A stretch of 64,000 nt of DNA from Candidatus Woesearchaeota archaeon (GCA_964481435.1 CAYZTH010000001.1:7992-71991), one strand, 5' to 3'; numbered from the stretch's first letter, positions 5,965 to 45,899 are shown. A program made the numbers and translations. The notes: generated by a model from the sequence alone, not told the origin.

Positions 5965-6143
5965 ATATTATTTTTTATTTATGGTTTTGTATTTAGATTA
6001 TACTCTAAGATTTTTTTAATAATAAGTTATCAAGAAAAAAACACGAAGACAACTTATATGTTTCCCAACAATAGCCAGTACAGCATATAACGCCAGGCGC
6101 TTAACTTCTGTGATCTGACGGGAACAGGTGTTTCCACCTAGCT

Positions 6144-7031
6144 ATGGTCGTCTTCATTATCAAGTGGTTTTATTCATTTTTAAACCTTACGATTTGGAAT
6201 AAAAAACTTTTTAAACCAGAGTTTTCTACTTATAGAATGGGTGGGACTAAAGGCAAAGAAAAAATTGCGGAACTCTGCGGGGCAGTAATGGGTGACGGAT
6301 GGATTGAGGAAAGAGAAAGGGGATTTTTTATAGCGGGAGATCCTTCAGAAGATGGAGAATATTATGACCGGCATTTCTTAAAATTGATAAATGGAGTTTT
6401 AGGAATAAATGCAAAAACAAAAAATTTTCCATATTGGCGCGTTTATGGAATTGCGCTGTATAAAAAAGAATTAATCAGGAAATTGTTAGGTTTTGGGTTA
6501 ACTAAAGGAAAAAAGGTTAAGTCTGCATACGTCCCAGAATGGATATTTAATTCAGATAAAAAAATTGCTTTCTCATTTCTTCGGGGCCTCTTTGATACAG
6601 ATGGTTGTATTTTTTGTCAGAAAGATTATACTAAATATGCCGATGAATTTAACTCAAAATATCATACTAAAATTAGGATAAGAATAGGCTGTATTTCTTC
6701 AAAACTAATAGATCAGATATTTATTTTATGCAAAAAATATGGGTTTAAAGCAGTAAGAAGAACAGTTAAAAGAGGATTTAGTTATCATAGGAATCGTTGT
6801 GACACCCACATTTTAGAAATAAATGAAATTAAAAGCATCGGTAATTGGTTTGATAATCTTAAACCTTCAAACCCCAAGCATGTAACAAAATATTTAATAT
6901 GGAAGAAATTTGGTTTTTGTCCTCCAAAAACCACCCTTAAACAAAGAAAGGATATACTTAAAAATACACTCAACCCCTATAAATTATACGCGGGAGTGTC
7001 GGAGCGGTCAAACGAGAAGCGCTCAAGCTAA
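6144..7031 (+). CDS. LAGLIDADG-family endonuclease, double-motif single chain; 3' end overlaps the tRNA-Leu 5' exon
   Basis: Two LAGLIDADG-like motifs, LCGAVMGDGWI and LRGLFDTDGCI, about 100 aa apart; C-terminal KPSNPKH tail shared with the paralog at 11149-12024. The true start may be the internal ATG near 6235. The TAA stop lies inside the tRNA intron. Confidence 0.6.
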   Translation: MVVFIIKWFYSFLNLTIWNKKLFKPEFSTYRMGGTKGKEKIAELCGAVMGDGWIEERERGFFIAGDPSEDGEYYDRHFLKLINGVLGINAKTKNFPYWRVYGIALYKKELIRKLLGFGLTKGKKVKSAYVPEWIFNSDKKIAFSFLRGLFDTDGCIFCQKDYTKYADEFNSKYHTKIRIRIGCISSKLIDQIFILCKKYGFKAVRRTVKRGFSYHRNRCDTHILEINEIKSIGNWFDNLKPSNPKHVTKYLIWKKFGFCPPKTTLKQRKDILKNTLNPYKLYAGVSERSNEKRSS

Positions 7032-9430: not shown

Positions 9431-10348
9431 ATGGCAAATGAAATTTATGACCTGGCGATAGTTGGTGCAGGGGCAGCAGGATGTACTGCCGCAATATATT
9501 CTGCGAGAAGAAACTTGAAAACCCTCCTCCTAGATTCAAAAGCCATGGGGGGCTTATACACTGAAGCAACAATCATCGAAAACTATCCGGGTTTTGATAA
9601 AATTTCAGGCATAGAGCTGGCCCAGAAATTCCATAAGCAAGTTCAAGCACTCCCCATAAAGTTTATTCAAAAGGCTGTTGAAGACATAAAGAGTAAAAAA
9701 GATTTATTTGAAATCAAGACCGACAAAGAGACATTCGTAAGTAAAGCAATTATTATAACTTCTGGGCTTCAACCAAGAAATCTGGGTCTTGATACAGAGA
9801 AGAAATTTGTTGGTAAAGGAATAAGTTACTGTGCAACGTGTGACGCCCCTTTATTCCAGGGCAAGGATGTTGCAGTTGTTGGGGGAGGAAATTCTGCATT
9901 TTACTATGCTCTTCATCTTTCAGAGATATGCAATAAAGTCTATCTGATAAATATCAAAAAAGAATTCAGCGCAGACGATGTCGTTATATCAAAGGTCAAG
10001 TCCCAAAAAAATGTTGAATTCAAAGCCCCTTTTTCAGTATCAGAACTTAAGGGAAAGAATTTTTTAGAATCTATAAAAATAAAGCAAGATGGAAAAGAGC
10101 AAGTCCTTAATGTTTCAGGCTTGTTCATAGCAATAGGGCAAGAACCCAAGCTAGATTTCTTAAAAGACTTAAAACCCGCCCTTGGGGAAAAACACACTCT
10201 AAAAGTTGATGAAAATCTAAAAACATCGATAACAGGCATGTTCGCCGCAGGCGATGTCACCGGAACAGCGGGCCAAATAATAATTGCATGTGGCCAGGGA
10301 GCCAAGGCTGCCCTTAATGCGACCCAGTATCTTAAAGAAAAAGATTAA
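9431..10348 (+). CDS. trxB: thioredoxin-disulfide reductase
   Basis: FAD motif IVGAGAAG, redox-active CATCD, NADPH motif VVGGGNSA, C-terminal GDV...AAG FAD motif. Confidence 0.85.
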   Translation: MANEIYDLAIVGAGAAGCTAAIYSARRNLKTLLLDSKAMGGLYTEATIIENYPGFDKISGIELAQKFHKQVQALPIKFIQKAVEDIKSKKDLFEIKTDKETFVSKAIIITSGLQPRNLGLDTEKKFVGKGISYCATCDAPLFQGKDVAVVGGGNSAFYYALHLSEICNKVYLINIKKEFSADDVVISKVKSQKNVEFKAPFSVSELKGKNFLESIKIKQDGKEQVLNVSGLFIAIGQEPKLDFLKDLKPALGEKHTLKVDENLKTSITGMFAAGDVTGTAGQIIIACGQGAKAALNATQYLKEKD

Positions 10349-11148: not shown

Positions 11149-12024
11149 TTAATTAAAGTATAAATTGAACTTTTTTAAATGTTTAGGATTAGCAGGTTTT
11201 ATTACTTCAAAAAACCTCTTGATATCCTCTTTTTTATACAAATAAACATTTTTCTTCCTTATGCCAAATTCAAAATCTATAAACTTTAGGCCACCTTTTA
11301 TTTGTTCTAAATAAACAGGGTCCCCACTGGATATTTCAACAACAGGGTCTTTTTTTCTTCTTATATAAAATGTTCCATCTGTATCAAATAGGCCCCTAAA
11401 ATAGTTAGCAAGGAGATTTTTATCAGAAAAAATTTCTTTAGGGATACCTAGTTTCCCCATTTTCCTTCCTTTTGGTAACTCAAATTCTTTTGTTAAAAAA
11501 TCAATTAATTCTTTGGAATATCCCCTTAACTTCAAATAATGATTAAATTTTTCAATATTGAACTTCATTTTAAAGAGTTCTTCAAATTTTTTCTTTAGAT
11601 ACAAGAAATAATTCGTATCACCCAAATTCCCTGTAACAGAAACTTCATGATTTATTTTGCTTAAATGCCCGTCTCCATTAAGAACGCCCAAAACTTCAGC
11701 AAGGTTCTGGTCTAAAATAGGTTTATTTATGCACTTTTTCAAATATTTTTCCATCACAATTATATCAAATTTTTTTGGATTAAATGAAGATATTTTTACC
11801 AATTTATCAAAAGTGATTTGAGGAATTAAGCAATCTCCTCTTTTGTATTTGAAAATCATATCTCTAGTAACCCCTAATTCCTTTGATAAATGGGGATAGG
11901 TAGAAACTTTTTCTTTAGCTTTTTTAAAGAGATTATTTCTTTCTAACGCATTAATCTTTATGAAATTAGCCATAATCCTTAGAAGAATTTCATATTTATA
12001 AATCTTATTATTTCTACTAACCAC
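11149..12024 (-). CDS. LAGLIDADG-family endonuclease, double-motif; stop codon 3 nt before the tRNA-Gly 5' end
   Basis: Motifs LAEVLGVLNGDGHL and FRGLFDTDGTFYI; C-terminal IKPANPKH tail matching the paralog at 6144-7031. Confidence 0.6.
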   Translation of the reverse strand: MVSRNNKIYKYEILLRIMANFIKINALERNNLFKKAKEKVSTYPHLSKELGVTRDMIFKYKRGDCLIPQITFDKLVKISSFNPKKFDIIVMEKYLKKCINKPILDQNLAEVLGVLNGDGHLSKINHEVSVTGNLGDTNYFLYLKKKFEELFKMKFNIEKFNHYLKLRGYSKELIDFLTKEFELPKGRKMGKLGIPKEIFSDKNLLANYFRGLFDTDGTFYIRRKKDPVVEISSGDPVYLEQIKGGLKFIDFEFGIRKKNVYLYKKEDIKRFFEVIKPANPKHLKKFNLYFN

Positions 12025-17794: not shown

Positions 17795-19336
17795 ATGTAT
17801 CAATCTATAAAGAAAGTGATTAAATCTCTCTTTGACAAAGAGAATCAATCTCTCACTAAGCAGACAATAGAGAACTCTGCCTATAGTTTCGGAATAAATA
17901 TTGTTTCAAAACTGGGGGGAATAATTTTCTCTATCTTGCTGGCCAGGATTCTTTTGCCAGATCTTTACGGATTGTACAGCCTAGTTTTTTCTGTTGTTGT
18001 CACAATATCTGCTTTTACAGACTTGGGAGTTAATTCCGCTCTTTCAAGATATCTTGCAGAGTCCCTGTCGAAAGGAAAAAAATTTGAGGATGAGGCTCGT
18101 TCAAGAGTTCGTTTTCTTTTTAATTTGAAAGTCATTCTTTCATTTGGGATATCACTAATTCTCTTTTTGTTATCAACTGTAATTGCCACAGCCATATTCC
18201 ATAAACCAGAGATGGCCCTCCCACTGAGAATGGGTTCAATTTATTTACTTGTCTTGTCCATACAAGGCTTTTTCGCCATGATATTCTATCCATTGAAGAA
18301 GCTTAAGTATGGGTTATTCGCGGAAGTTATATTTCAAGTGGCGAAAATAGGGTTGTTCTTATTATTTATCAAGATGTATCTATCGGTTTCAAATGTTTTT
18401 TTAGCTATGGCCCTAGCCTTCTTTATATCTGCAGCATTCTATTTTCTTATTATCTTATTTAAACATAAGAAATTATTTTTTGGAAAACTAGTCAAGATAG
18501 AAAAGAGGAAAATTACAATCTTTTTAGGGTGGATTACCCTATTTACTGCATTTTCTTCACTTTATTCAACAATCAATACCCTTGTTCTTGGATTTTTCGT
18601 AGATAATAACTTTGTGGCTTACTACAGCGCAATTCTGTCTATAGTCCTTCCATTGAGCGTAGTCATAAATTTAGGGGGCATTGTTCTGCCAATTTTTACA
18701 GAAATTACTGGAAAAAGATTGAAAAGAGGATTTAAGAAAATAGTAAAATACTCTGCAATTGTGTCAATCCCTTCAAGTGTAGGTCTCGCATTTATCTTGA
18801 TTCCAGTCCTAAGAGTAATATACGGTCCAAGTTATGTCCCGCCAGAATTCTATAATGTAATCCTAATCTCCACGATTTTGCTTTCAATGTTGGTATTTGA
18901 AGAGTTGTTTATCTCCTTGTACCTTTCTTTATTTGCAGCAAAAGAGAAGTTCAATCGACCAACAATCAGTTTTATCCTTATGACGGTATTGAATATAGTC
19001 CTTGATTACATCTTGATTAAACTGTTACTGCCTTACGGACAGATCTGGGCGGTTTTAGCGGTTTCAATCGCAACACTTGTAACTAGATACTTGAATCTTC
19101 TTATTTTAGGGGCTCTAGCCAAAAAAGAATTCAGGCTAGGATTGAATAAAAGAACAATTTTATCTCCTCTACTTGCCTCATTGATTATGCTTGGTTTTCT
19201 ATTCCTATTTAACTGGATATTTAATCCAAATCTGATTCTTACAATAATCATGGTCGGACTTGCGATAATCCTCTATTTTATCTTCTTATTTTTGATAGAG
19301 AACTTCGGGGATAAAAAAGCAAAAGAGGGAGATTAA
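17795..19336 (+). CDS. oligosaccharide flippase, Wzx-like (MOP superfamily)
   Basis: 513 aa, ~14 TM helices, polysaccharide-biosynthesis-protein pattern. Confidence 0.65.
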   Translation: MYQSIKKVIKSLFDKENQSLTKQTIENSAYSFGINIVSKLGGIIFSILLARILLPDLYGLYSLVFSVVVTISAFTDLGVNSALSRYLAESLSKGKKFEDEARSRVRFLFNLKVILSFGISLILFLLSTVIATAIFHKPEMALPLRMGSIYLLVLSIQGFFAMIFYPLKKLKYGLFAEVIFQVAKIGLFLLFIKMYLSVSNVFLAMALAFFISAAFYFLIILFKHKKLFFGKLVKIEKRKITIFLGWITLFTAFSSLYSTINTLVLGFFVDNNFVAYYSAILSIVLPLSVVINLGGIVLPIFTEITGKRLKRGFKKIVKYSAIVSIPSSVGLAFILIPVLRVIYGPSYVPPEFYNVILISTILLSMLVFEELFISLYLSLFAAKEKFNRPTISFILMTVLNIVLDYILIKLLLPYGQIWAVLAVSIATLVTRYLNLLILGALAKKEFRLGLNKRTILSPLLASLIMLGFLFLFNWIFNPNLILTIIMVGLAIILYFIFLFLIENFGDKKAKEGD

Positions 19337-19368: not shown

Positions 19369-20349
19369 TTAGAACCAATTTCCCTTTTTGAGGATTTTTG
19401 TGGCAATGAATATTTTGAGTGTTAAAAGAATATTGCGGTCCATCCTGCTTTTTTTGGCTTCAAATTCTCTCTTATAGTTTTCGTCAATTACTGGGATAAC
19501 CGGGGCCTTGCAGCTTCCAAGCCACCAAGCTAATTCTGTGAAGGTGCTCAAATATGTCCCAAGGATTTTTTTTGTCTTTGAAAGCAGGATAAGATCTACC
19601 AATCCTTCTTGTGTCACGCTAACATTTTCTCTGTCTCGATTATTTTTAGGATAAACAATTACCTTTTCCTTTAATTTAGATTTGAAAAGATTTTCAGTTT
19701 CTTCGCAATCTGTGCATAAGAAGAACATTTGTTCTGGATTTTCTTTTAATATCTTGTCAATCTCTTCGAAAAAACGCTCATTTGAAGAGACTTTTCCAAG
19801 ACCTTCCTTTCCAAGAAGAAAATCCCCTCGTCTTGCATGAATTCCGACGAAATCAGTCAGGTCATTTTTTTTCAAGAATTTTTCGACTTCTTCCCTAACA
19901 AAACTAATTGGGACAAGTCTTTTAAGATATTCAAGTATGTCTTTTCTTATATTCATAGGGATTCCTTCAAATTCATGGTCTATATCATTTCCTTTTTTTG
20001 TAGAGAATAAACTGGGGAATATCTGTTTTTCTTCTCTTTCACCAGGAAAAAGGATCCATCGCGCATTATCTGTTGCAAGATATTCGTGAGCAGACTCTGG
20101 AATTTCATTTACGTCTGCACGATAGACTTTCAGGTTTTTCTTGTCAATTTTTTTCAAATCCTCTTTTTTTAGTTCAGGGAACTGGTTTTCAAATAGGTCG
20201 TTGAATTTTCCCCTTAGGGTATGGTTTGAAGGCCAGTACAAGAGAAGTTCTCGGCCATATTTATCTCCAAGCCTCCACATAGAAATAAGGCATTTAATCC
20301 TGTTTGATATCCCCCCCGGGTTGGCAGCAATTATTTTCCTATTTTCCAT
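19369..20349 (-). CDS. glycosyltransferase family 11-like (alpha-1,2-fucosyl/colitosyl-transferase type)
   Basis: N-terminal PGGISNRIKCL (GGLGNQ-like motif I), GIHARRGDF (GT11 HVRRGDY motif) and C-terminal YLSTFTELAWWL (SxFSxWaAwL-like). Confidence 0.55.
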   Translation of the reverse strand: MENRKIIAANPGGISNRIKCLISMWRLGDKYGRELLLYWPSNHTLRGKFNDLFENQFPELKKEDLKKIDKKNLKVYRADVNEIPESAHEYLATDNARWILFPGEREEKQIFPSLFSTKKGNDIDHEFEGIPMNIRKDILEYLKRLVPISFVREEVEKFLKKNDLTDFVGIHARRGDFLLGKEGLGKVSSNERFFEEIDKILKENPEQMFFLCTDCEETENLFKSKLKEKVIVYPKNNRDRENVSVTQEGLVDLILLSKTKKILGTYLSTFTELAWWLGSCKAPVIPVIDENYKREFEAKKSRMDRNILLTLKIFIATKILKKGNWF

Positions 20350-25913: not shown

Positions 25914-26726
25914 GTGCAGCAGGAATTATTCGCACGCCTCAGGGACAACAGCCATAAAGATTTAAATACCCTCTCAATTACTCAGGTTATGACAAATTCA
26001 ACAAGAATCGCAATCGCAACAATGACCTATGATAAAAAAGGCGATGCAGAGTTAATGAGAGAAACTCTGCGTTTTTTAGCAAGCAAAGGTCATCAGGCTT
26101 ATATTGCAGATGGCGGAAGTTCTACGAGATTTCTTGATGACCTTAGACTAATGGGCCATGAAGTTGTGCAGGTACCAGGTGGTTTAACCTGTCAGCACAT
26201 AAATTCTATTCAAAGAGCAGCAGGAAATGCAAAAACAGTCCTCTATATGGAGCCTGACAAGTTTAAATGGGTCTCTGAACATCTGGAAGAAGCAATAGAT
26301 AAATATTTTAGTATGCGCGAAGGGCCAGATATTTTTGCCGTCGTTAGTAGAACTTCCGATCAGATGAACACCTTTCCACCTCATCAGCGAACATGCGAAG
26401 GATTGATGAATGATCTAATTCATAAGAAAACTGGGTTCAAAGGTGACTCTATCTATGGCCCAAAGGTTTTCTCATCAAAGCTTGCCGCACACTTGAATGA
26501 ACTTAGTGGAAAAGACCTAGGTTGGGCAGGTCTTATGTTCTCAGTTGGTAGGGCTTACAATTTAGGAATGCCCCTAAGGTCAATAGAAGCAGCTTCTGAA
26601 TGTCCTAGTAGTCAAACATCAGAAGATAAAAACGCAGCAGCCTATAGGGAAAGGCAATTTAAACAGAATGCATTAGGACTATACCTTGGATTAGGAGAAA
26701 CAGTACCTGCAGAGTTCTTAGCCTAG
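25914..26726 (+). CDS. hypothetical protein, compositionally atypical (GC-richer, Lys-poor)
   Basis: 270 aa from a GTG start (alternative in-frame ATG at 25989); visibly higher G+C and few Lys codons compared with neighbours; no motif recognised confidently. Confidence 0.4.
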   Translation: MQQELFARLRDNSHKDLNTLSITQVMTNSTRIAIATMTYDKKGDAELMRETLRFLASKGHQAYIADGGSSTRFLDDLRLMGHEVVQVPGGLTCQHINSIQRAAGNAKTVLYMEPDKFKWVSEHLEEAIDKYFSMREGPDIFAVVSRTSDQMNTFPPHQRTCEGLMNDLIHKKTGFKGDSIYGPKVFSSKLAAHLNELSGKDLGWAGLMFSVGRAYNLGMPLRSIEAASECPSSQTSEDKNAAAYRERQFKQNALGLYLGLGETVPAEFLA

Positions 26727-28192
26727 TTCTTTTTATTAATTCTAAAAATACTCTTTATTTTTCTTGCCGAGTAATTAACAAGGGCCTTTCTTTTTGTCCA
26801 AAAAACATACTTGAGAGTATAGGGAAGCAGAGGAAACTGTAGAATAAAACCCCTCAGGGTCAGCATCCTGAACAAAGAAAGATTATCTAGGAACTCTTCT
26901 TTTAGTTCATATAATTTCTCTAAACTATTCTCCGCAGTATATGCCGGAGTAGGCTTGTCAGACATCCAAAAATCATCCGTCATCATTCCTTTTTGTTTAG
27001 CAAGTTCATAGACCTGTGTTCCAGGATAGACTGTAAGTATGGCCCCGTCAGTATACGGGTGGTACTTTATTCTTTGCAGTTTCTTTATCAGATTAATTGT
27101 GTTTTTTATTGTTTTTTCATTTTCTCCAGGAAGCCCTATGATTATGAAGGGTTTGATATTTATTTTAGACTTCGCGAACATTTTGAATGCATTGATTATA
27201 TCCTCTTGATTTATCCCTTTATTTGCCATCCTCAAAATATCGTTGTCCCCGCTTTCAACGCCCAAAAGAACTCTCTTGAAATTAGCCCTTTCTAAGAATC
27301 TGATCATTCTCTCACTTAGTGGTTTTATCCTGCCACTAGCAATAAAATCTTTCTTTATACCTCTTCGGAGTATTTCTTTGCATATTTCAATTACTCTCTC
27401 ATTATCTACAAAAAGAGAGTCATCATGGAACCAGATTTCTTTTATTTGTGGAAATCTCTTGACCAAATATTCAATCTCGTCAACAACATTTTTTGGGCTC
27501 CTGAATCTGACTCTTCTTTTTGTCAGGGGATTTAGGGAACAGAAACTGCATTTGAAAGGACATCCCCTTGAACTTAGAATACATGCAGAATCGCGGGGAG
27601 TATTAAAAAAAAGTTCATGCTTCGGAAAAGGAAGACTATCCAAATCTTCAATAAGTTCTCTTGGCGGAGTCATTATAATTTTTCCTTTCTTAAAAAAAAC
27701 AATTCCTTTTATTTTTTTTGAATCAGCAGTCTTGCTCTTAACTATTTCTGTCAGAGTCAATTCTCCTTCTCCTAAGACAATGATTACATACGGATACTTT
27801 TTCAATAGTTGGTCATACATGACTGTTGCATGGATACCGCCCAAAATTATCTTTATTTTTGGATGGTTTTTGTGGATGTACTCTATTAGCATATAACTGC
27901 TTACCCTATTTGGGGTCAGCATCTGTATTCCAACAAAATCAGGAGAGAAAGAATTTATTTTTTCTATGACCTGGTTCTTACAGGTTTCATAATCAAGGTG
28001 ATTAAAGCATAGGCTCTCAACGGTAATCCCCTGAGATTCCAAATAAGAATGAAGATATGCAATTCCCAGAGCATAATGAGATTCTGCACCTAATTTCACG
28101 CCTTTTTTATTATCTTTTTTTGTAGTCATCAAGGATATTTCCTCAAAACTGCTTGTAACAAATAGGATTTTTTTGCCGGATTTTTTCATCAA
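26723..28192 (-). CDS. cobalamin-binding radical SAM protein (class B rSAM)
   Basis: N-terminal B12-binding Rossmann domain with GGIHAT; radical SAM Cys triad SSRGCPFKCSFCSL; paralog of 28562-30004. Confidence 0.75.
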   Translation of the reverse strand: MMKKSGKKILFVTSSFEEISLMTTKKDNKKGVKLGAESHYALGIAYLHSYLESQGITVESLCFNHLDYETCKNQVIEKINSFSPDFVGIQMLTPNRVSSYMLIEYIHKNHPKIKIILGGIHATVMYDQLLKKYPYVIIVLGEGELTLTEIVKSKTADSKKIKGIVFFKKGKIIMTPPRELIEDLDSLPFPKHELFFNTPRDSACILSSRGCPFKCSFCSLNPLTKRRVRFRSPKNVVDEIEYLVKRFPQIKEIWFHDDSLFVDNERVIEICKEILRRGIKKDFIASGRIKPLSERMIRFLERANFKRVLLGVESGDNDILRMANKGINQEDIINAFKMFAKSKINIKPFIIIGLPGENEKTIKNTINLIKKLQRIKYHPYTDGAILTVYPGTQVYELAKQKGMMTDDFWMSDKPTPAYTAENSLEKLYELKEEFLDNLSLFRMLTLRGFILQFPLLPYTLKYVFWTKRKALVNYSARKIKSIFRINKKN

Positions 28193-28239
28193 TATGGTAA
28201 AAAGGTTGCATTTAAAAGTGTTTTGAAAGGCATAAAATT
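28193..28239 (-). promoter_or_regulatory. duplicated promoter of an rSAM paralog (TTTAAAT TATA-like box ~27 nt upstream of the ATG; probably a leaderless transcript)
   Basis: The ~45-bp block CATTTAAAAGTGTTTTGAAA... is conserved upstream of both rSAM genes (compare 30005-30050). Confidence 0.4.
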
Positions 28240-28518
28240 TTAAAATAGGCTAAAGACTCCCTTTTGGAAGACCAACGCGCCGCCAATCAAGAAGAAAAAT
28301 CCTGGAAGATTGAATACGAATGAGAGCAGGATGATTGCCGCAGCAAAAAAGTCGATTATGCTGGCTATGTTTATTGAAGCAATCGAGAATATGACTGATT
28401 TTATAAGGAGATAGACCGCACCGATGATTAAGACCGATTTCACAACATATGAAAAGAACGCAGAAAACATAAATAAAGAAACAAGTATGTCCAGGATTCC
28501 TAAAATCATTATGACCAT
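28240..28518 (-). CDS. small hydrophobic membrane protein (2-3 TM)
   Basis: 92 aa, almost entirely hydrophobic; sits between the two rSAM paralogs. Confidence 0.3.
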   Translation of the reverse strand: MVIMILGILDILVSLFMFSAFFSYVVKSVLIIGAVYLLIKSVIFSIASINIASIIDFFAAAIILLSFVFNLPGFFFLIGGALVFQKGVFSLF

Positions 28519-28561
28519 GGTATTATGATTATTTTTCTTTTTAATTTTATTAATAGTTAAT

Positions 28562-30004
28562 TTAGAATAATCTGCCTTTTTTTAACAGAGTTTCCACTCT
28601 CCCAAAGAGATATTTCATTAAGTAAGGGAGTGTCTCGAATTGGGCTTTAAATCCTCTTGGAGTTATTATTCTATAAAATGAGAGGTTATCCGCGAGAATT
28701 TCCTCGAACTTTTTTAATTCTGCATAACTGTGTTCTGCAGTATATAGCGGAATCTCCTTATCCGTAAGCCAGAAATCATCATTGATAAATCCCTTGGACT
28801 TTGCAATTTCGTAAACTTCGGTTCCAGGATAAACAAATAGGATATTGAAGCATCTGGGATAAGATACATATTTTATTTTTTGTAACTTTTTTATGAATTT
28901 GGCGCTTTCATTTATTGTATGCAGATTTTCTCCAGGCAGACCAACAATTAGATATGTTTTAAGGTGTATTTTCGACTTTGAAAATAACTTAAATGCCTTA
29001 ATTATGTCCTCTTGATTTATCCCTTTATGGCAGGATCTTAGAAGTTCATTGTCTCCGCTTTCTATACCCAGTGTGACTCTTATGAAATTTGCTTCCTCAA
29101 GTTTTTTAACAACTTCGGCACTCAAGGGTTTAATTCTTCCGCTGCACACAAAATCCAGTTTTATTTTTCTTCTCATTATTTCGTTGCAGATGTCTATCAC
29201 CCGCTGATTATCAACAAAGAAGGAATCATCATTTATTGAGAGTTCTTTCATCTGAGGAAATTTCTTTACCATATACTCTATTTCATCAACGACTTTTATA
29301 GGGTCTCTGAATCTCACCGCCCTTTTAGATTCTGGATTCAAGCAGCAAAAACTGCAGGCAAAAGGGCATCCTCTTGCAGATAAAAGACTCCCGGTCCATC
29401 TTTTGCTACCCTTAAAGAATACTTCGTGTTTTGGAAAAGGCAGGCTATCTAGGTCTTTTATTAATTCCCTAGGTTTTGTTCTTGTTACTTTCTTATTTTT
29501 ATAAAATGCGATTCCATCAATTTTCTTAAGATTAGGTTTTTTCTTGTCTAATTCTTTAATTAATTCAAATAGAGTTATCTCTCCGTCCCCAAGGGCCACT
29601 ATTAAAAAGGGATATTTTTCTATCAGTTGCTTATACATTATTGTAGCATGTATTCCCCCGGCAATTATCTTAATCTTAGGATAATTTTTATGTATCCAGT
29701 CAATAAGATAGTATGTGCTGACTCTATTACAGGTTAACATTTGAAAGCCAACAAAATCTGGAGAGAAACTTTTTATTTTTTCAATTACTTCCCTGTAGCA
29801 GTCTTTATACGGTTTATGATTTAGCCAGAGAGTTTCAACTTCCATGTTCTTTGATTCAAGGTAAGAATGAATGTATGCGAGGCCAAGGGGATAATAAGTT
29901 TGCTCTCCGAAGTCTTCACTGACTTTCCCCTCTGGAACTAACGGAAGATCTTCAAAACTTGTCGTTATTAGCAATACCTTTTTTCTGCCGGATTTTTTCA
30001 TCAA
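28562..30004 (-). CDS. cobalamin-binding radical SAM protein (class B rSAM), paralog
   Basis: Same architecture: GGIHAT B12 motif and SARGCPFACSFCCL; N-terminus MMKKSGRKK nearly identical to the paralog. Confidence 0.75.
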   Translation of the reverse strand: MMKKSGRKKVLLITTSFEDLPLVPEGKVSEDFGEQTYYPLGLAYIHSYLESKNMEVETLWLNHKPYKDCYREVIEKIKSFSPDFVGFQMLTCNRVSTYYLIDWIHKNYPKIKIIAGGIHATIMYKQLIEKYPFLIVALGDGEITLFELIKELDKKKPNLKKIDGIAFYKNKKVTRTKPRELIKDLDSLPFPKHEVFFKGSKRWTGSLLSARGCPFACSFCCLNPESKRAVRFRDPIKVVDEIEYMVKKFPQMKELSINDDSFFVDNQRVIDICNEIMRRKIKLDFVCSGRIKPLSAEVVKKLEEANFIRVTLGIESGDNELLRSCHKGINQEDIIKAFKLFSKSKIHLKTYLIVGLPGENLHTINESAKFIKKLQKIKYVSYPRCFNILFVYPGTEVYEIAKSKGFINDDFWLTDKEIPLYTAEHSYAELKKFEEILADNLSFYRIITPRGFKAQFETLPYLMKYLFGRVETLLKKGRLF

Positions 30005-30050
30005 TATAATAAAAAGAACGCATTTAAAAGTGTTTTGAAAAGTATTAAAC
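30005..30050 (-). promoter_or_regulatory. duplicated promoter of the second rSAM paralog
   Basis: Near-identical copy of the block at 28193-28239 (TCAATATAATAAAAAGAACGCATTTAAAAGTGTTTTGAAAAG). Confidence 0.4.
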
Positions 30051-30142
30051 AGTCATTTTATTGGACTGGGAAAAATTATGTTGGGACATAATTATGAGAG
30101 ATAAGCCCCTAATATTAAGAGGTATTTACAGAATTATCCTAA

Positions 30143-32506
30143 TCAAATGACTTTTACATCTGGAAGAGGAACAATGAAATTTGTTCCTTTTTCAACTAAT
30201 TCTCTTTCTCTCTCCCTGAATCCCTTTACAAAACTGTATGGCAAGGCTAGTAGATAATCTGGTCTTTCGTGCCTTAATTTTGTTTCATCAAAGATGGGAA
30301 TCTCCGAACCAATCATGTACTTCCCGAATTTGAATGGATTTGAATCTGCAGCAGCTTGGACCAAGTTTGGCCCTATTCCGCAGAACTGCATGATGGTATT
30401 TCCTTTTGTAGAAGCACCATATATCCAAGTCTTTTTTCCTTCTCTTTTTATCCTTTCAAGCAAGGCTATCAGCTCTTGTTTTGTTCTGGTGATTCTTGCC
30501 ATGAATTCCGTATACGTTGAAGTATTGAATATGCCCCAATCCAATTCTTCATTAAGATTCTGCTGTAATCTCATGGTCCTTGGATATTTTAGATTTCCTT
30601 TTTTCTTGGCAAAAATCCTGAAACTTCCGCCATAAACATCATTTAACTGAACATCAAACAATTCGAGTCCTGCTTTCTCAAGAATCCACTTCATATTCTG
30701 CGTTCCATAATAGCCAACATGCTCATGAACAATATTGTCATACATATTAGTCTTAATCATTGCAGGAAGATAAGCCATTTGAATTATTACTGCACCATCT
30801 TCGTCTAAAATCTCACTTATGTCTTTACAGAACTTGATTGGGTCATGCTGATGATAGAATGTAGCAACACAAAAGACTAACTTCGCTTTATGATCAGAGA
30901 CGCTCTTAAAGTTTTCTGCACTGAAAAAGTCTTTTACTCTTTTGAATTTACTTGAATGAACCACACTTTCAACATTCTGTGCAGGGTCTATTCCTATTAA
31001 ATTATAATCACTAGCTGAGAAAAAGTCTAGAAGAGCCCCATCATTACAACCAATATCTAAAATTGTGTCATTTGAGTTCAAGTTCTTTAAGATTTTACCT
31101 GAATTTGCAACATCTTCAAGTATCTTTTTCATAGAAGAATTAGAAGTACTTGTGTAAGGATATTGTTTGTACATGTTCAATAAAGAATAATTATATGCTA
31201 ACTGAAGTGTACCACACTCTTTATCGCTTGACTTGACACACTGCATAATTTTAAGTGAAGATTTTTTTAATTTATCTCTATAATCTAAATTATCTGGAAA
31301 GATTGAAGAAAGATACTGCTCTCCTAAGTCTATGCAAGGAATAATGTTTTTATTACCACAGAATCGGCATTCGGTTATTTGTTTCTTAGGTTCTTTTAAT
31401 TTTTGTTTCATAAAGTCTATAACCCCTCTTGCATCAGGGTAGTCTGGTGAATTATTCATTGGTTCTTGAATGTCAACAAAGCCATCAAATGAAATGTCTA
31501 AATCAAGTTCTTTAACCAAATCTTTTAAGACAATAGAGTTCTTTGCACCAACTTCAATAATGCCTTTTCTATCAAGATTCTTAGCAATCCATTCACCAAC
31601 CCATTCAACAGGTGCGAAAGCATACTTGCTTCGACCATCAATATAGACTTTAGAATCATTAAGCATACCGATTAAAACCCCTTTATTCAATCCTTCGCCA
31701 TACATCGCGCTCAATCTCACAATCAAAGATTCACCATTCATAGCAACTATCATTTCGGCTTCAAGTTTATTCCTTCCATAAACAGTATCAAGTTGAGTTC
31801 TTGCCGAAAGTGTGCTGATTTGGATAAACTTCTGGAATTTGACGCCCTCAAAAATGTTCTTGGTCTTTTCAACTGTCTCTTTATAGTCCCACTCTGGATT
31901 TTGTTCTGCTTTAAATCTCGAAGAAGGCATAGCACAATTAATTACATAATCAAAACTCTTTCCAAGCACGCTGTCATAATTTTCTAATGTGACTGGTGTG
32001 ACATTATGTCCTAGCTTATTTAATGCTTTTAGAATTTGAGAACCGACAAAGCCATTTGCACCGAACAATGCTACTGTTTTCTTCAATCTTTGTTTGGTGA
32101 CATTCTCATGTATTATTGGTGGATTGCAAGTGTCCCAGGGTTTTGATAGCATAGCTATGGCCGTAACGGGGGTTATTGCATGAAAAGCATGAGCGACTCC
32201 AGGAGAAGCGAAAGTACATTCTCCCTTACCCATATGTATTACCTGTTCCTTAGCATCTGGGCTCTCTTTAAGGACCATTATCCCAGAACCCTCTACCACC
32301 AAGAAATATTCAGTGAATTCTGGATGCATATGATTTCCCCTGCTTGCGCCAGGAGTAAAATAGAGCATGTTGAACTCTTTAATGTCCGTTTCAGGGGTCC
32401 AGGTAAAGATTCCCCCCCTGCCGTCAATAACTGTATTAATATTACAGTTTGGTTTCAAAAGCCCAAACTTCTTTTTAGGTTCGTCTGTCTTTTTTTTATC
32501 TACCAT
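30143..32506 (-). CDS. trifunctional fusion: FdtA/WxcM-like cupin (sugar ketoisomerase/epimerase) + RmlD-like NAD(P) 4-ketoreductase + TylC3/TcaB9-type NDP-hexose C-methyltransferase
   Basis: aa 1-130 cupin with RGNHMH; aa ~140-375 SDR (VALFGANGFVGSQIL, YGRNK); aa ~380-787 C-methyltransferase with Zn-ribbon CRFCGNK...C...C..C, SAM motif ILDIGCNDG and C-terminal WIYGASTKG...FKFGKY domain. Confidence 0.7.
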   Translation of the reverse strand: MVDKKKTDEPKKKFGLLKPNCNINTVIDGRGGIFTWTPETDIKEFNMLYFTPGASRGNHMHPEFTEYFLVVEGSGIMVLKESPDAKEQVIHMGKGECTFASPGVAHAFHAITPVTAIAMLSKPWDTCNPPIIHENVTKQRLKKTVALFGANGFVGSQILKALNKLGHNVTPVTLENYDSVLGKSFDYVINCAMPSSRFKAEQNPEWDYKETVEKTKNIFEGVKFQKFIQISTLSARTQLDTVYGRNKLEAEMIVAMNGESLIVRLSAMYGEGLNKGVLIGMLNDSKVYIDGRSKYAFAPVEWVGEWIAKNLDRKGIIEVGAKNSIVLKDLVKELDLDISFDGFVDIQEPMNNSPDYPDARGVIDFMKQKLKEPKKQITECRFCGNKNIIPCIDLGEQYLSSIFPDNLDYRDKLKKSSLKIMQCVKSSDKECGTLQLAYNYSLLNMYKQYPYTSTSNSSMKKILEDVANSGKILKNLNSNDTILDIGCNDGALLDFFSASDYNLIGIDPAQNVESVVHSSKFKRVKDFFSAENFKSVSDHKAKLVFCVATFYHQHDPIKFCKDISEILDEDGAVIIQMAYLPAMIKTNMYDNIVHEHVGYYGTQNMKWILEKAGLELFDVQLNDVYGGSFRIFAKKKGNLKYPRTMRLQQNLNEELDWGIFNTSTYTEFMARITRTKQELIALLERIKREGKKTWIYGASTKGNTIMQFCGIGPNLVQAAADSNPFKFGKYMIGSEIPIFDETKLRHERPDYLLALPYSFVKGFRERERELVEKGTNFIVPLPDVKVI

Positions 32507-38079: not shown

Positions 38080-40980
38080 CTAAATTCCCAGATAGTCTAA
38101 TTTTCCAAAAGTGTTCGGATTTGATATATCTACATTCGTCTCCAGATACTCATTATAGTAAGGGGTGTTACTTGGATAATTCACTTTCCAGATCTTAATA
38201 GGTCCCTGGACTCCTCCAGCATAAACAATGTCTCCGATTGTTAGATTATAATTATCCCTAAGCTGTTTCACAAAAGGAGAGGGCTCATTATGCGCCAATA
38301 CAAAGTTTTCTGATTCATCTAGAAGATATAATCTGACCCACTGGGTATTAAGGGCTTTTTCACTTAAGTATAATCCGATTCCAAGATTATTTACTCCTGT
38401 TTGAGAAATGCTTGGAATAATATAAAGCATGGATTCAATCATTTTTTCATTACCTCTTCTCAGGTCATATCTTCTCCCCTGGGCCCATAGATATCTTATT
38501 GGAATACGATACTGTTGGCCATTATAGACCATGACTGCTTCAAGGTTGTTTACTGATTGTGTGTTTTTGTCTATGGTCAATAAAAATAAAGCGATTCCAG
38601 CTCTTTGCATGGGGAATAATTGTCCATTCCAGAGCATATCCTCGTCTATGGCTGTGCCATAATTGCCATTTGCGTAAACATAGATTGTTTCATTCTTTGT
38701 TTCCTGAGTTTGTTTTTGGTCCAGAGAGAAAGTACTTATCCAGCTTAGCCGGTCTAATCCTGTTTTATCAGAGCCGATGCTCGCAAACGCAGAGTACTTG
38801 CCTATATCTGAACTATCAATAAGGACATAGGAAACATTATATGCTTTGCAGACCTGTAGGGCTGTTGATTCATTTTTAGCATCTAGAAGATATCTTGCAG
38901 TGACGTGGTCCCAAAACGCATTCCAGTGACCTCCGTCTGTGACTGTTGGTCTCTGCCCATAGTACTGAACCCAATAACCATAGTCCCACCAGTGCACAAA
39001 TATAGAATCTTTTGGTGTCTCTGTTCTTGTCCACTCCATTGCTTTCTGCCACTGTTCATAATAGGCGCTGTTTACAGTGGCTCTTGCCTCTTGAGTGGCT
39101 GATTGTTCATTATTCAAGAAATTTATTATCAAGAATACTGCAATAAATATCACCACAGCACAGACGAGTATCTTATAAGCGTTCTTCTTTATTGTAAACA
39201 TATATTCAGATAGTTTTACAGGTAAGAATACCGAAGCGATGATTATTGCAGGACTGACGATGAAGAATAATCTGACCGCACCCCTCATGGAGATAATTAT
39301 CCAGAAGAAGAACGATAGTAGAAGAAGGTGTATGAAATTTATTTTTTTTAAGTCTTCATTTAATTTTTCATCTTTTTTTGCATTGGCGTATATGTACATA
39401 AATAGCATTATTGCTACAAAGATAATTATCCCTCCAAAATAGAGGATACTGCTGAAAGCATTTTCTCCATTGAGGATGTCTGAAGCAGAAACCCTTGAAA
39501 AAATGAGATTAAACAATAAGAATGCAAATCCCACATTCAATAGGGAATTCCAATCTTTTTTCTGTATAGAGTGGATTAAAGTGCCTATTGATACGATGAG
39601 ATAAATTCCCAGGAGCATATAGTCCACTGTAGGAGTGAGGTTTGAGAAGATTAATAGCAACCATATCACCAAAGAAATCGCAAGATAAACCGGATAGATA
39701 TATCTTTTCTTGACATCGAAGTGCTTTACAGCTTCATAAAATAAGAGGAAGGTTCCAAAAAGGAATGTCCAGAAGAACCAACTAAAAGACGCCAAGACTT
39801 GCATTACATATGGCGCACTGTTCTCTGCAACAGTTAGGGCTATTCTCCCACCACCAAACGGATTTATTAGTTTTGCAATTATGATATTAAGAGAATCTGA
39901 AAGCAAGCCCCTTTTCAGAATCAGCATAGCGATGATGACTAAAATAACAGAGATTATCAAACTGATTACGCTTTCAGGCAATTTTATCTTGTCTTTGATC
40001 TTCCTTAATTTTGTACTGAAAATAATTTGATCGATTATCAAGACTCCTAAAATAGCAATGCAAAAACCGCTATCTTGCAGAGATAGCAAAGTTCCTCCCA
40101 AACCTACTTTAAACATGGAAAATATCAATGCGGGAATCAGCCACGATGCAAAAATCAAGAGAGTCTTCTTCTTTTCTTTATTGAACAAGAAAGCTATTAG
40201 TGTTGCCAATCCAAAAGCCATAAAAATATATCTGAAACCGCCCCAGCTATAGATCATTATTCCCGTGAATATTCCGGATAAGATTCCAAAAGGAAGCATC
40301 TTCTTGATTTTATCCTGTTTCCATGCTAGAACTATGAACAGAAGAGCTGCCCAGAAGAATACCATTCCCAAGCTCTCAATCTCCGGAATGCCCCCCGTAG
40401 TTCTATGGATTATTTCGGGAGCAACAACATAAAACAAGGTTGCAATCAAAGCGCCAATTGCCGAAAATTTTTTAGGCATCATAAAAGAGAATATTACATA
40501 AAGGAATAAGAAGAATAAAATAAATGCCAGGCCTGAGAAGATGACCGGGGCTATTATTGCAACAAATTCAACACTTTTTTGAGGTCCATGCAGGAAGGGG
40601 CTTAGTATTTTATACAGATAAGCGATTGCCCATGGCATCAGGCTATTTTTAGCATAGCTTGTCGCGCCAAGTGGCGCTGAAGTCATATGGTCTATTGGTT
40701 GATACTGGCCAGAAGAGATATCTTTTGCCAGTCTTAAATATAAAAATGGATCAAGATCCGGACCAAGAGTATAATTTCCATTTGTGACATCTTTTAGATA
40801 AGGAATATTTGTAGTCCTGAGATGGCATCCAAAATAAACAATTACTGCAAGCAAGATAATGACTAGAATGACAAACCAGTACTTTTTGAAGAAAGTTCCA
40901 ATTGATTTGGATGGTGTTTTATCCCCCTTTACCTCCAAATTTTCCTTTTTTTCTGGATTTTCCGTATTCACTTCGTTCAT
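38080..40980 (-). CDS. aglB: oligosaccharyltransferase AglB (STT3 homolog)
   Basis: 966 aa, 13-TM N-terminal domain plus large C-terminal soluble domain; diagnostic WWDYGYW (WWDYG) motif. Confidence 0.9.
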   Translation of the reverse strand: MNEVNTENPEKKENLEVKGDKTPSKSIGTFFKKYWFVILVIILLAVIVYFGCHLRTTNIPYLKDVTNGNYTLGPDLDPFLYLRLAKDISSGQYQPIDHMTSAPLGATSYAKNSLMPWAIAYLYKILSPFLHGPQKSVEFVAIIAPVIFSGLAFILFFLFLYVIFSFMMPKKFSAIGALIATLFYVVAPEIIHRTTGGIPEIESLGMVFFWAALLFIVLAWKQDKIKKMLPFGILSGIFTGIMIYSWGGFRYIFMAFGLATLIAFLFNKEKKKTLLIFASWLIPALIFSMFKVGLGGTLLSLQDSGFCIAILGVLIIDQIIFSTKLRKIKDKIKLPESVISLIISVILVIIAMLILKRGLLSDSLNIIIAKLINPFGGGRIALTVAENSAPYVMQVLASFSWFFWTFLFGTFLLFYEAVKHFDVKKRYIYPVYLAISLVIWLLLIFSNLTPTVDYMLLGIYLIVSIGTLIHSIQKKDWNSLLNVGFAFLLFNLIFSRVSASDILNGENAFSSILYFGGIIIFVAIMLFMYIYANAKKDEKLNEDLKKINFIHLLLLSFFFWIIISMRGAVRLFFIVSPAIIIASVFLPVKLSEYMFTIKKNAYKILVCAVVIFIAVFLIINFLNNEQSATQEARATVNSAYYEQWQKAMEWTRTETPKDSIFVHWWDYGYWVQYYGQRPTVTDGGHWNAFWDHVTARYLLDAKNESTALQVCKAYNVSYVLIDSSDIGKYSAFASIGSDKTGLDRLSWISTFSLDQKQTQETKNETIYVYANGNYGTAIDEDMLWNGQLFPMQRAGIALFLLTIDKNTQSVNNLEAVMVYNGQQYRIPIRYLWAQGRRYDLRRGNEKMIESMLYIIPSISQTGVNNLGIGLYLSEKALNTQWVRLYLLDESENFVLAHNEPSPFVKQLRDNYNLTIGDIVYAGGVQGPIKIWKVNYPSNTPYYNEYLETNVDISNPNTFGKLDYLGI

Positions 40981-44891: not shown

Positions 44892-45899
44892 TTAGTTCAG
44901 AAGCCACCAAATTGTTTTTTTATTACATGCTGCGCAGAGAGGGACTTTATCGAACTCTCCAGCGAGATGATTCTCTCTAATTTTCTTTAATCTCTCTCCA
45001 AACCAGATATCTTCTATACTACCCTCTTTTAGATTTCCTAGGACTTCTCTATGGTTCCAGTCATCGCAGCATAGGACAACATCGCCATTCCAATCAACGA
45101 CCATCTTTTGCCATATGAAGCTGCAAGGCCATCTTTTCTGATTTTTAAAATGAAAGCTTTTCTCAGAATCTTTATCCAGGTTTCCTGCCCAGTTTCTCTG
45201 ATTTAATATGTTAAGGCCATCAACAATATTCTTCCACTGTTTATAGAACTTTTTTATCTCTTTCCTGTTCTCATCAAGTTCGACAAGGACAAGTGAAACC
45301 GAGGGCTTTTTCAGGCCCAGTTCATTTCGCATTTTCATGAAGTTGATTATGTTCTCGCTGGTTTCGTCGAACCTTAATCCTACTCTTATCTTTTCGTAAG
45401 TCTCTTTTGAATATGCATCAAAGCTGATGGTTATCCAGTCTAGGCCAGATTCAATAAGCCTTTTTGATATCTCTAGCCCTAATAGAGATGCATTGCTGTA
45501 GAATCCGACAATCAAGTCTTTGCTCTTCGCATACTTTATCTTCTCGATTATTGTCTGGTCAAGCAACGGTTCTCCGAAAAAAGAAAGAACAACACTTTTG
45601 ACGCCAAAACTTGCGCAATTATCAATTATTTTTTTATATAGGTTCATATCCATAAAACCTATTTCTTTCAGCAGATGATGGGGGCACATGACACAATTAG
45701 AATTGCAAGCATTTGTCGTACCTATATCCAGGCTCATCGGCGGCTTGCCCTCTAAATTTTTTATTACTTTCTTGATTTTTTTATCATAGGCCTTTTTATA
45801 AACGGGACTATTGATTATAAGTCGATTTGATAAGAATGCTCTTCCAATATTAAAACCAAGATTATTTGCCCTTATCTTATTTAGAATTTTCATCAGCAA
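44892..45899 (-). CDS. radical SAM protein with SPASM-like C-terminal Cys cluster
   Basis: LDIGTTNACNSNCVMCPHH (CxxxCxxC); C-terminal CSFIWQ...LCCDDWNH auxiliary cluster region. Confidence 0.65.
   Translation of the reverse strand: MLMKILNKIRANNLGFNIGRAFLSNRLIINSPVYKKAYDKKIKKVIKNLEGKPPMSLDIGTTNACNSNCVMCPHHLLKEIGFMDMNLYKKIIDNCASFGVKSVVLSFFGEPLLDQTIIEKIKYAKSKDLIVGFYSNASLLGLEISKRLIESGLDWITISFDAYSKETYEKIRVGLRFDETSENIINFMKMRNELGLKKPSVSLVLVELDENRKEIKKFYKQWKNIVDGLNILNQRNWAGNLDKDSEKSFHFKNQKRWPCSFIWQKMVVDWNGDVVLCCDDWNHREVLGNLKEGSIEDIWFGERLKKIRENHLAGEFDKVPLCAACNKKTIWWLLN

Follow-up and report, generated by a model that had tools for sequence, protein, structure and literature searches.

A tandem pair of genes in a glycosylation locus of a Candidatus Woesearchaeota archaeon encodes two class B radical S-adenosylmethionine (rSAM) enzymes, which may modify a sugar of a cell-surface or N-linked glycan, most probably by C-methylation; we consider the chances of this reading as a whole to be about even. 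The genes lie in a stretch of 64,000 nucleotides (GCA_964481435.1 CAYZTH010000001.1:7992-71991), which is referred to here as the window and from whose first letter positions are counted. An earlier note on this DNA had described the pair as cobalamin-binding paralogs with duplicated promoters, and had suggested that they modify the glycan or, alternatively, lipids. The two genes are:

26723..28189, minus strand: rSAM-A, B12-binding-domain radical SAM enzyme, 488 amino acids from ATG
28562..30001, minus strand: rSAM-B, B12-binding-domain radical SAM enzyme, 479 amino acids from ATG

TTG-start versions of the same open reading frames (ORFs) span 26723..28192 and 28562..30004; the adjacent ATG is the choice of public gene callers. 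Both proteins were confirmed as class B radical SAM enzymes of class-I architecture, in which a B12-binding domain is combined with a radical SAM core. The tandem paralogs of the earlier note are real: at the lengths given above, both carry the GGIHAT motif and the CxxxCxxC motif (as RGCPFxCSFC), and both domains score above the Pfam gathering cut-offs in both proteins. PF02310 (B12-binding) reached 74.5 bits in rSAM-A and 63.1 bits in rSAM-B (gathering cut-off 32.1), and PF04055 (Radical_SAM) reached 90.7 and 81.0 bits respectively (gathering cut-off 29.5). The three CxxxCxxC cysteines (C210, C214 and C217) were invariant across 78 family members, and the GG of GGIHAT stands 25 residues from an SxL-like QxLT motif. 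The AlphaFold2 (AF2) model of rSAM-A (predicted local distance difference test, pLDDT, 91.9) shows the class-I layout (PMC12931638): ahead of the barrel lies a Rossmann domain of five helices and five beta strands, the latter at 7-12, 56-61, 85-89, 113-117 and 135-138. The best Foldseek matches of the model were the class-I B12-rSAMs OxsB, CysS, TokK, TsrM and MgmA (E 1e-19 to 1e-23).

The two paralogs share 59% protein identity across 470 amino acids. All invariant family residues are retained in both, from which both copies look functional. rSAM-A in particular appears intact because it differs at only 9 of 132 family-conserved columns, with every change conservative and the total within the range of the family. 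Orthologs of rSAM-B were found at 76-86% identity in other DPANN-type (Diapherotrites, Parvarchaeota, Aenigmarchaeota, Nanoarchaeota and Nanohaloarchaeota) contigs (here called B1-type), where the tandem partner is of a second type and shares 66-70% identity with rSAM-B. The best match to rSAM-A in any database was at about 60% identity, with none above this. By these figures rSAM-A is an orphan paralog which has diverged far and rapidly yet looks intact, as would fit a changed specificity.

From sequence comparison, the pair falls within a known enzyme class, in a large clade that is uncharacterised. Among 5.8 billion proteins searched, 3840 matched at E ≤ 1e-20; the best 120 of these were 49-60% identical, 445-750 amino acids long, and unnamed or mislabelled. 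Named sources of the family were Diapherotrites/Iainarchaeum, Micrarchaeota, Pacearchaeota, Patescibacteria/Falkowbacteria, Elusimicrobia and Kiritimatiellae. Among relatives with a name, the one nearest to the window genes is in a Ca. Iainarchaeum metagenome-assembled genome (a DPANN lineage). In a library of representatives at 50% identity, the B12-rSAM superfamily had 6864 representatives at E ≤ 1e-30, and the close clade (≥ 40% identity) comprised about 45 representatives, grading into the remaining superfamily. Members of the clade often occur in tandem or multiple copies and often near fucosyltransferases, and in three cases (library proteins P0072, P0077 and P0087) a family rSAM is fused to an FkbM methyltransferase. 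The library also contained giant proteins of 1,800-2,331 amino acids (P0181, P0198, P0200 and P0208), each with three or four B12-rSAM-like stretches that are related to the family. Glycan loci of the candidate phyla radiation (CPR) and DPANN (L010, L012, L013 and L092) were seen to hold three or four B12-rSAM genes within about 20 kb; the genes sharing these loci were from different subfamilies, with 23-31% mutual identity.

We compared the genomic context of 16 close-family loci with that of 90 loci of distant B12-rSAM relatives. BLAST matches to reference proteins served to label the genes, and the scans of metagenomes and genomes contributed at least 5 and at least 7 close relatives respectively. 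Three or more glycan-gene matches were found in 13 of the 16 close-family loci versus 8 of the 90 distant loci (Mann–Whitney: p = 3e-9), a test that is partly circular because some of the reference proteins were drawn from the close-family loci themselves. The ten close loci outside the reference set had a median of about 2.6 glycan matches per 10 kb, versus 0 in the distant set. Fucosyltransferase matches were present in 7/16 close-family loci and in 0/90 distant ones.

The Pfam-annotated neighbourhoods that we looked up for family rSAM proteins were all glycan clusters, marked by Wzx/Wzy, glycosyltransferases of families GT2 or GT4, short-chain dehydrogenase/reductase (SDR) epimerases or DegT. 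The Iainarchaeum locus contains four B12-rSAM genes, two of them of this clade, together with Glf, GT2, GT10, Wzx and TylF; the Elusimicrobia locus has two clade copies with DegT, epimerases, GT11, WbqC and MBOAT; Wzx, Wzy, FkbM and GT11 surround the Kiritimatiellae gene; and in Falkowbacteria the rSAM gene sits in a nucleoside diphosphate (NDP)-sugar operon ordered epimerase-DegT-epimerase-rSAM-epimerase-GT2. A recurrent order was seen in DPANN loci (L002, L169 and L172), namely Glf-GT2-FucT-Wzx-[small ORF]-rSAM-rSAM-NodZ-like-DegT-epimerases-SecDF, of which the window holds a rearranged version. A predicted role of the clade in the modification of surface or N-linked glycans is thereby well supported, and the glycan idea of the earlier note gains strength from a context which is conserved across both domains of life.

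The start regions of the two genes are near-identical in a short block (coordinates relative to the ATG in brackets):

28168..28228, minus strand: shared 5' block before rSAM-A (-39..+22), TTTAAAT at 28210-28216
29980..30040, minus strand: shared 5' block before rSAM-B (-39..+22), TTTAAAT at 30022-30028

Within the block 55 of 61 nucleotides are identical (34/39 upstream and 21/22 coding), whereas DNA identity over the whole genes is 62% and at third codon positions just 38%, which is synonymous saturation between the paralogs. The 21-mer TTTCAAAACACTTTTAAATGC has just two occurrences in the window, 28208-28228 and 30020-30040, where chance alone would give 0.03 matches if up to 3 mismatches are allowed. 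Neither it nor the promoter block was found in any of 171 other related loci. The N-terminal MKKSG that the block encodes is absent from rSAM-B orthologs and other family members, and the block is therefore a lineage-specific copy. It thus appears to have been copied by gene conversion or segment duplication, much later than the gene duplication itself, and the likely effect is co-regulation of both rSAM genes.

The duplicated promoter region claimed by the earlier note stands, although the shared coding part extends over about 7 codons and not about 10. Its TATA-like TTTAAAT, placed about 27 nucleotides before the ATG, was found where it was said to be, at -27..-21 in both copies. The position of the box fits the leaderless layout that had also been proposed, but this layout is not special to the pair: a TATA-like box starting 25-30 nucleotides ahead of the start codon was found for about 19 of 50 window genes, and a leaderless-type layout is therefore genome-wide rather than peculiar to the rSAM genes. 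Transcription of the two genes would presumably start close to the ATG and be leaderless.

As the earlier note had it, the rSAM genes bracket a small hydrophobic ORF:

28240..28518, minus strand: 92-amino-acid hydrophobic ORF between rSAM-B and rSAM-A, absent from the ENA gene calls (L001)

Relatives encode a conserved two-helix membrane protein of about 46 amino acids (13 members found; consensus MADILCTIMGIxDIIAGILIL..FG.N..GIIFG..MI.KGG.SFI). The end of its ORF reaches 4 nucleotides into the first rSAM gene in L002, L008, L169 and L172 and adjoins an rSAM gene in L171, while the member in L170 is far from any rSAM. This tight translational coupling suggests that the small protein is a physical partner of the rSAM enzyme, such as a membrane anchor; that it is the substrate is less likely. 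The C-terminal half of the 92-amino-acid ORF matched the 47-amino-acid protein of L002 with a Smith–Waterman z of 5.9. With a hidden Markov model (HMM) of the small family used without composition correction, the score of this half was reached by 5 of 5000 shuffles (z = 4.2), while the N-terminal half gave a marginal match; the bias-corrected HMM gave no significant match to the ORF. The C-terminal half is a probable divergent relative of the small membrane protein. An internal duplication of the ORF was considered and rejected, since no match was seen between one half and the other (z = 0.4). In the window the copied promoter block has taken the place of the coupling junction. On the evidence of these alignments and gene orders, a small hydrophobic ORF is a recurrent predicted partner of the rSAM family in DPANN relatives.

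Two further observations concern these small ORFs. The proportion of GC at third codon positions (GC3) in the 92-amino-acid ORF is 0.47, against 0.32-0.38 in all neighbouring genes. Upstream of the second tandem rSAM gene of L002, the Iainarchaeum locus (9930-10000), there is a collapsed small-ORF remnant, ATGGCAGAT ... GGAGGATTTAGTTTTATATAA, corresponding to MAD...GGFSFI*, and the duplicated unit there was therefore the small ORF together with the rSAM gene.

The reaction that we propose would begin with reductive cleavage of the SAM bound to the CxxxCxxC cluster. The resulting 5'-deoxyadenosyl radical would take a hydrogen from an unactivated sugar carbon, and methylcobalamin on the N-terminal domain would then, most probably, donate a methyl group to give a C-methylated sugar. 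The substrate could be a nucleotide-sugar, or a lipid-linked oligosaccharide at the cytoplasmic face of the membrane before flipping, and the enzyme may be tethered to the membrane by the small protein whose gene lies just upstream. The two paralogs might differ in the position or the sugar that they modify, or might carry out consecutive steps. Both genes would be driven by copies of one promoter, from which their co-expression would follow.

The type of reaction was compared with curated NCBIfam profiles, of which none had its family cut-off reached by rSAM-A or rSAM-B. Scores for the two proteins were as follows:

HpnJ (TIGR03471): 167.4 / 143.7 bits, below the equivalog cut-off of 577.6
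BchE (TIGR02026): 159.8 / 143.2 bits, below the equivalog cut-off of 481.35
Ladderane-type lipid B12-rSAM (TIGR04072): 148.6 / 120.0 bits, below the equivalog cut-off of 360
PhpK-family P-methyltransferases (TIGR04479): 144.0 / 131.6 bits, below the subfamily cut-off of 600
ApyD (NF050148): 132.0 / 132.6 bits, below the cut-off of 750
C-methyltransferases of ribosomally synthesised and post-translationally modified peptides (RiPPs; TIGR03975): 99.6 / 100.9 bits, below the cut-off of 281.85
AprD4 diol dehydratases (NF033070): 75.6 / 81.1 bits over the radical SAM half alone, below the cut-off of 500

C-methylation is our leading hypothesis for the reaction of the clade, and each functionally characterised B12-rSAM group contains C-methyltransferases (PMC12931638). 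The sequence leaves this undecided because non-methylating B12-rSAMs are indistinguishable from methylases by sequence or structure (PMC12931638). The nearest enzyme in the Protein Data Bank (PDB) was dropped as a guide to the reaction, as the matches were 17-20% identical and their ranking varied with the method (sequence, profile or Foldseek). Two residues beyond the last cysteine of the cluster motif, at the position equivalent to TokK W215, 75 of 78 members have a leucine (Leu219; HMM alignment). This would be a methylase-like detail, although a soft criterion, since the rule on a hydrophobic residue of the W215 type was drawn from seven structures (PMC12931638). The position equivalent to TokK W76 (93), where radical methylases have a hydrophobic lower-axial residue under the cobalt, is A, S, P or C, followed by N94 (73/78 members) and an invariant R95, in a loop where the HMM alignment is uncertain. 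Ligation of the cobalamin by a histidine ("His-on") through SHYPLG was considered and rejected: the histidine is offset by one residue from the DxHxxG pattern, rSAM-B and its orthologs have a tyrosine in its place, and the His-off enzyme CysS also has YPL-G.

Several points weigh against C-methylation of a glycan. Non-methylating enzymes head both the curated profiles (HpnJ and BchE) and the PDB profile matches (OxsB, ranked first with 107.6 bits in a comparison of the family profile with the PDB), and two of these three act by rearranging sugar rings; on the reaction type the proposals of the earlier note had a mixed outcome, the B12-binding domain being present but the nearest profiles non-methylating, with the HpnJ, BchE and OxsB matches all far below membership cut-offs. 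With a small and variable residue at the TokK W76 equivalent, and with the conserved Asn and the invariant Arg after it, the lower face would be more polar, like those of TsrM and OxsB. The locus already has a conventional C-methyltransferase (30143..32506). The host lineage is probably unable to make cobalamin, and no cobalamin uptake gene was seen within the 64-kb window. It should also be noted that such a Rossmann domain need not bind cobalamin, as AprD4 shows, and that both AprD4 and ArsL are without cobalamin despite the fold, which alone is insufficient (PMC12931638). In a rival account the same enzymes act on a glycan by non-methylating radical chemistry (ring contraction or rearrangement as by HpnJ or OxsB, dehydration as by AprD4, or oxidation), with cobalamin as an electron sink or absent. 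We regard this as a serious competitor and the foremost one, though as rather unlikely. The top NCBIfam scores (HpnJ 167/144 bits, BchE 160/143 bits), the OxsB profile match and the small residue with Asn-Arg at the lower-axial-equivalent position speak for it, and non-methylating members fall in the largest B12-rSAM group without distinguishing features (PMC12931638). The profile scores are, however, 3-4 fold under the family cut-offs and imply no membership; Leu219 corresponds to the hydrophobic stacked residue which OxsB is without; and the fusions and frequent co-occurrence with other methyltransferases suit a methylation-rich decoration pathway, without proving one.

Two other substrates seem much more remote. 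An isoprenoid lipid, either a membrane lipid or the dolichol carrier, could be modified as by GrsA/GrsB and Gmm: lipids are the substrates of some archaeal B12-rSAMs, a small number of Gmm homologs have been reported from DPANN (PMC11214058), the adjacent gene encodes a small membrane protein, and the profile TIGR04072, labelled "lipid biosynthesis B12-binding/radical SAM", scored 149 bits. That score does not reach the cut-off of 360, no lipid-synthesis genes lie nearby, the family is found equally in bacterial O-antigen-type and NDP-sugar operons, and DPANN and CPR share it despite their different lipids; the lipid alternative raised by the earlier note is weakened by these facts and we think it very improbable. 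At a slightly lower level still we place the small hydrophobic protein as substrate, with the B12-rSAM C-methylating a ribosomal peptide in the manner of PoyB/PoyC for polytheonamides. The overlap of the roughly 46-amino-acid ORF with the rSAM start codon by 4 nucleotides in relatives is a classic precursor-maturase layout, and RiPP methylase profiles (ApyD, 132 bits; rSAM_ocin_1, 100 bits) were among the matches. Those profiles remain under their cut-offs (750 and 281.85), the small proteins are conserved over their full length with no split into leader and variable core, the L170 member stands apart from any rSAM, and bacterial family members lack such an ORF and are placed between sugar enzymes.

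The glycosylation locus spans about 15.4 to 42.3 kb of the window, which also carries archaeal markers (RadA, SecY with a Sec61 plug, FKBP26, pyruvoyl arginine decarboxylase and AglB). It contains AglB/STT3, a GT4-family priming transferase, two Wzx-type flippases, transferases of families GT1, GT2 and GT10 and a weak GT11/NodZ-like protein. GDP-mannose 4,6-dehydratase, GalE and Glf were matched at equivalog level, and a GDP-fucose-synthase-like SDR and a DegT aminotransferase are also present. From these genes we infer fucose and galactofuranose in the glycan. The features which bear on the rSAM pair are:

17795..19336, plus strand: Wzx-type flippase (Polysacc_synt); in relatives directly before the small ORF and rSAM pair
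19369-20349, minus strand: weak GT11 (E = 2e-4)/NodZ-like ORF, 326 amino acids
21690..22691, plus strand: GT10 alpha-1,3-fucosyltransferase-like protein of the conserved module; beside the rSAM pair in L002, L008, L169 and L172
24752..25858, minus strand: Glf, UDP-galactopyranose mutase (TIGR00031, 343 bits, cut-off 303.75; PF03275); member of the conserved module
25914..26726, plus strand: 270-amino-acid protein without family assignment, convergent with rSAM-A
30143..32506, minus strand: cupin + RmlD-like SDR + TylC3-type NDP-hexose C-methyltransferase fusion, 787 amino acids (PF07883, PF04321, PF08421, PF13489, PF08484)
38080..40980, minus strand: AglB/STT3 oligosaccharyltransferase, marking an N-glycosylation locus

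Glf and the C-methyltransferase fusion flank the rSAM set, as the earlier note had described, the fusion lying directly upstream of rSAM-B on the same strand. The fusion includes the methyltransferase zinc-binding and C-terminal domains and resembles a whole branched-sugar pathway segment in a single polypeptide. The 326-amino-acid ORF, which is possibly a second fucosyltransferase, is the counterpart of a 337-amino-acid gene with a faint NodZ match, which in L169 and L172 comes after the rSAM pair.

The 270-amino-acid protein had no Pfam (E ≤ 10), NCBIfam or PDB sequence match, and its structure prediction (pLDDT 43.6) gave no usable fold. The homologs found all lie next to family rSAM genes (L002 2838-3521, 55% identity; L092 1930-2592, where it stands between two B12-rSAM genes; and P0138), with the conserved motifs ADGGSS, YxEPDK, YGPK and SECP. 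The gene has a GC content of 0.415 and a genome-typical GC3, and its product may be a divergent enzyme of GT-A-like type. An unassigned radical SAM/SPASM gene (44892-45899, minus strand; best NCBIfam score 115 bits, cut-off 380) lies at the locus edge, and homologs of it (L008 2360-3373; L013; L092) are found inside glycan loci with the B12-rSAM family. Elsewhere in the window two free-standing LAGLIDADG_3 ORFs were seen, one (6144-7031, plus strand) overlapping the 5S rRNA gene (6044-6155) by 12 nucleotides and the other (11149-12024, minus strand) abutting tRNA-Gly and tRNA-Arg.

The known class B radical SAM enzymes work in pathways for antibiotics, cofactors, lipids and peptides. In the open-access full-text literature we found no account of a B12-rSAM from an O-antigen, polysaccharide, AglB or nucleotide-sugar setting. 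A 2026 review of these enzymes lists no class B radical SAM acting on cell-surface polysaccharides or protein N-glycans, and does not mention glycans, polysaccharides or sugars (PMC12931638). As for the cofactor, no cobalamin synthesis or remodelling gene was present within the window, and a survey of 2,978 archaeal genomes has no DPANN lineage among those listed with a complete cobalamin pathway (PMC11459464). The remark of the earlier note that such lineages are not expected to synthesise cobalamin is reasonable on that count. Since the clade is concentrated in DPANN and CPR, scavenging of cobalamin is implied, if cobalamin is used. More tentatively than for the pair itself, and with considerable doubt, we propose that the clade as a whole would be dedicated to cobalamin-dependent decoration of carbon skeletons, by C-alkylation or rearrangement, in surface and N-linked glycans, that in DPANN it would form a complex with the translationally coupled membrane hairpin protein of about 46 amino acids, and that its B12 would be scavenged from hosts or the community. 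If the clade modifies glycans, this would be a new substrate class for the enzyme family; unusual branched or rearranged sugars would be predicted on the surfaces of DPANN and CPR, which are their interface with the host, and this surface chemistry would be tied to an externally supplied vitamin. Because the family is large and sharply context-specific, a single biochemical characterisation would annotate thousands of genes.

Among known systems, GenK, GenD1 (GntE) and Fms7 likewise combine a B12 domain with a radical SAM core, act on unactivated sugar carbons and may occur as more than one paralog in a pathway, and they provide the working model for the reaction proposed here. They belong to actinomycete secondary-metabolite clusters and modify pseudo-oligosaccharides, whereas the present genes are in a primary cell-surface or N-glycan locus of DPANN/CPR type; the likeness is by description. 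HpnJ, a hopanoid-associated B12-rSAM that contracts the glucosamine ring, is the best-scoring curated profile and has a sugar attached to a lipid as its substrate, but it is non-methylating, its cut-off is far above the scores obtained, and there are no hopanoid genes here.

OxsB (PDB 5UL4), which carries out a ring rearrangement on a deoxynucleotide, is the best PDB match by both structure and profile (Foldseek E = 3.5e-23; 107.6 bits). It shares the class-I five-strand Rossmann domain and barrel and also acts on a sugar ring. It is 20% identical, however, has extra N-terminal and helix-bundle domains, and is without the hydrophobic residue between cobalamin and cluster for which the family has L219. 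The iterative class B methylases CysS and TokK (PDB 9N1B and 7KDY) have the same fold (E ~1e-21 to 1e-22), the N-terminal YPL...G motif and a hydrophobic residue two after the third cluster cysteine; they differ in sequence (18-20% identity), in their lower-axial Trp (VWN), which here is a small residue followed by N-R, in their C-terminal domains and in their substrates, which are carrier-bound antibiotics.

AprD4 (PDB 6FD2), a radical SAM 1,2-diol dehydratase acting on an aminoglycoside sugar, resembles the family as a sugar-modifying enzyme with a Rossmann-like N-terminal domain (template modelling score, TM, 0.68). It binds no cobalamin and aligns by sequence in the radical SAM half alone; in the family, by contrast, the N-terminal domain has a good score against the B12-binding profile. 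GrsA/GrsB and Gmm are, like the present pair, archaeal B12-binding radical SAM enzymes, with membrane-associated substrates. They occur in lipid-gene neighbourhoods of lipid-synthesising archaea, whereas the clade described here is found in glycan clusters (13/16 loci), and in bacteria as well as archaea.

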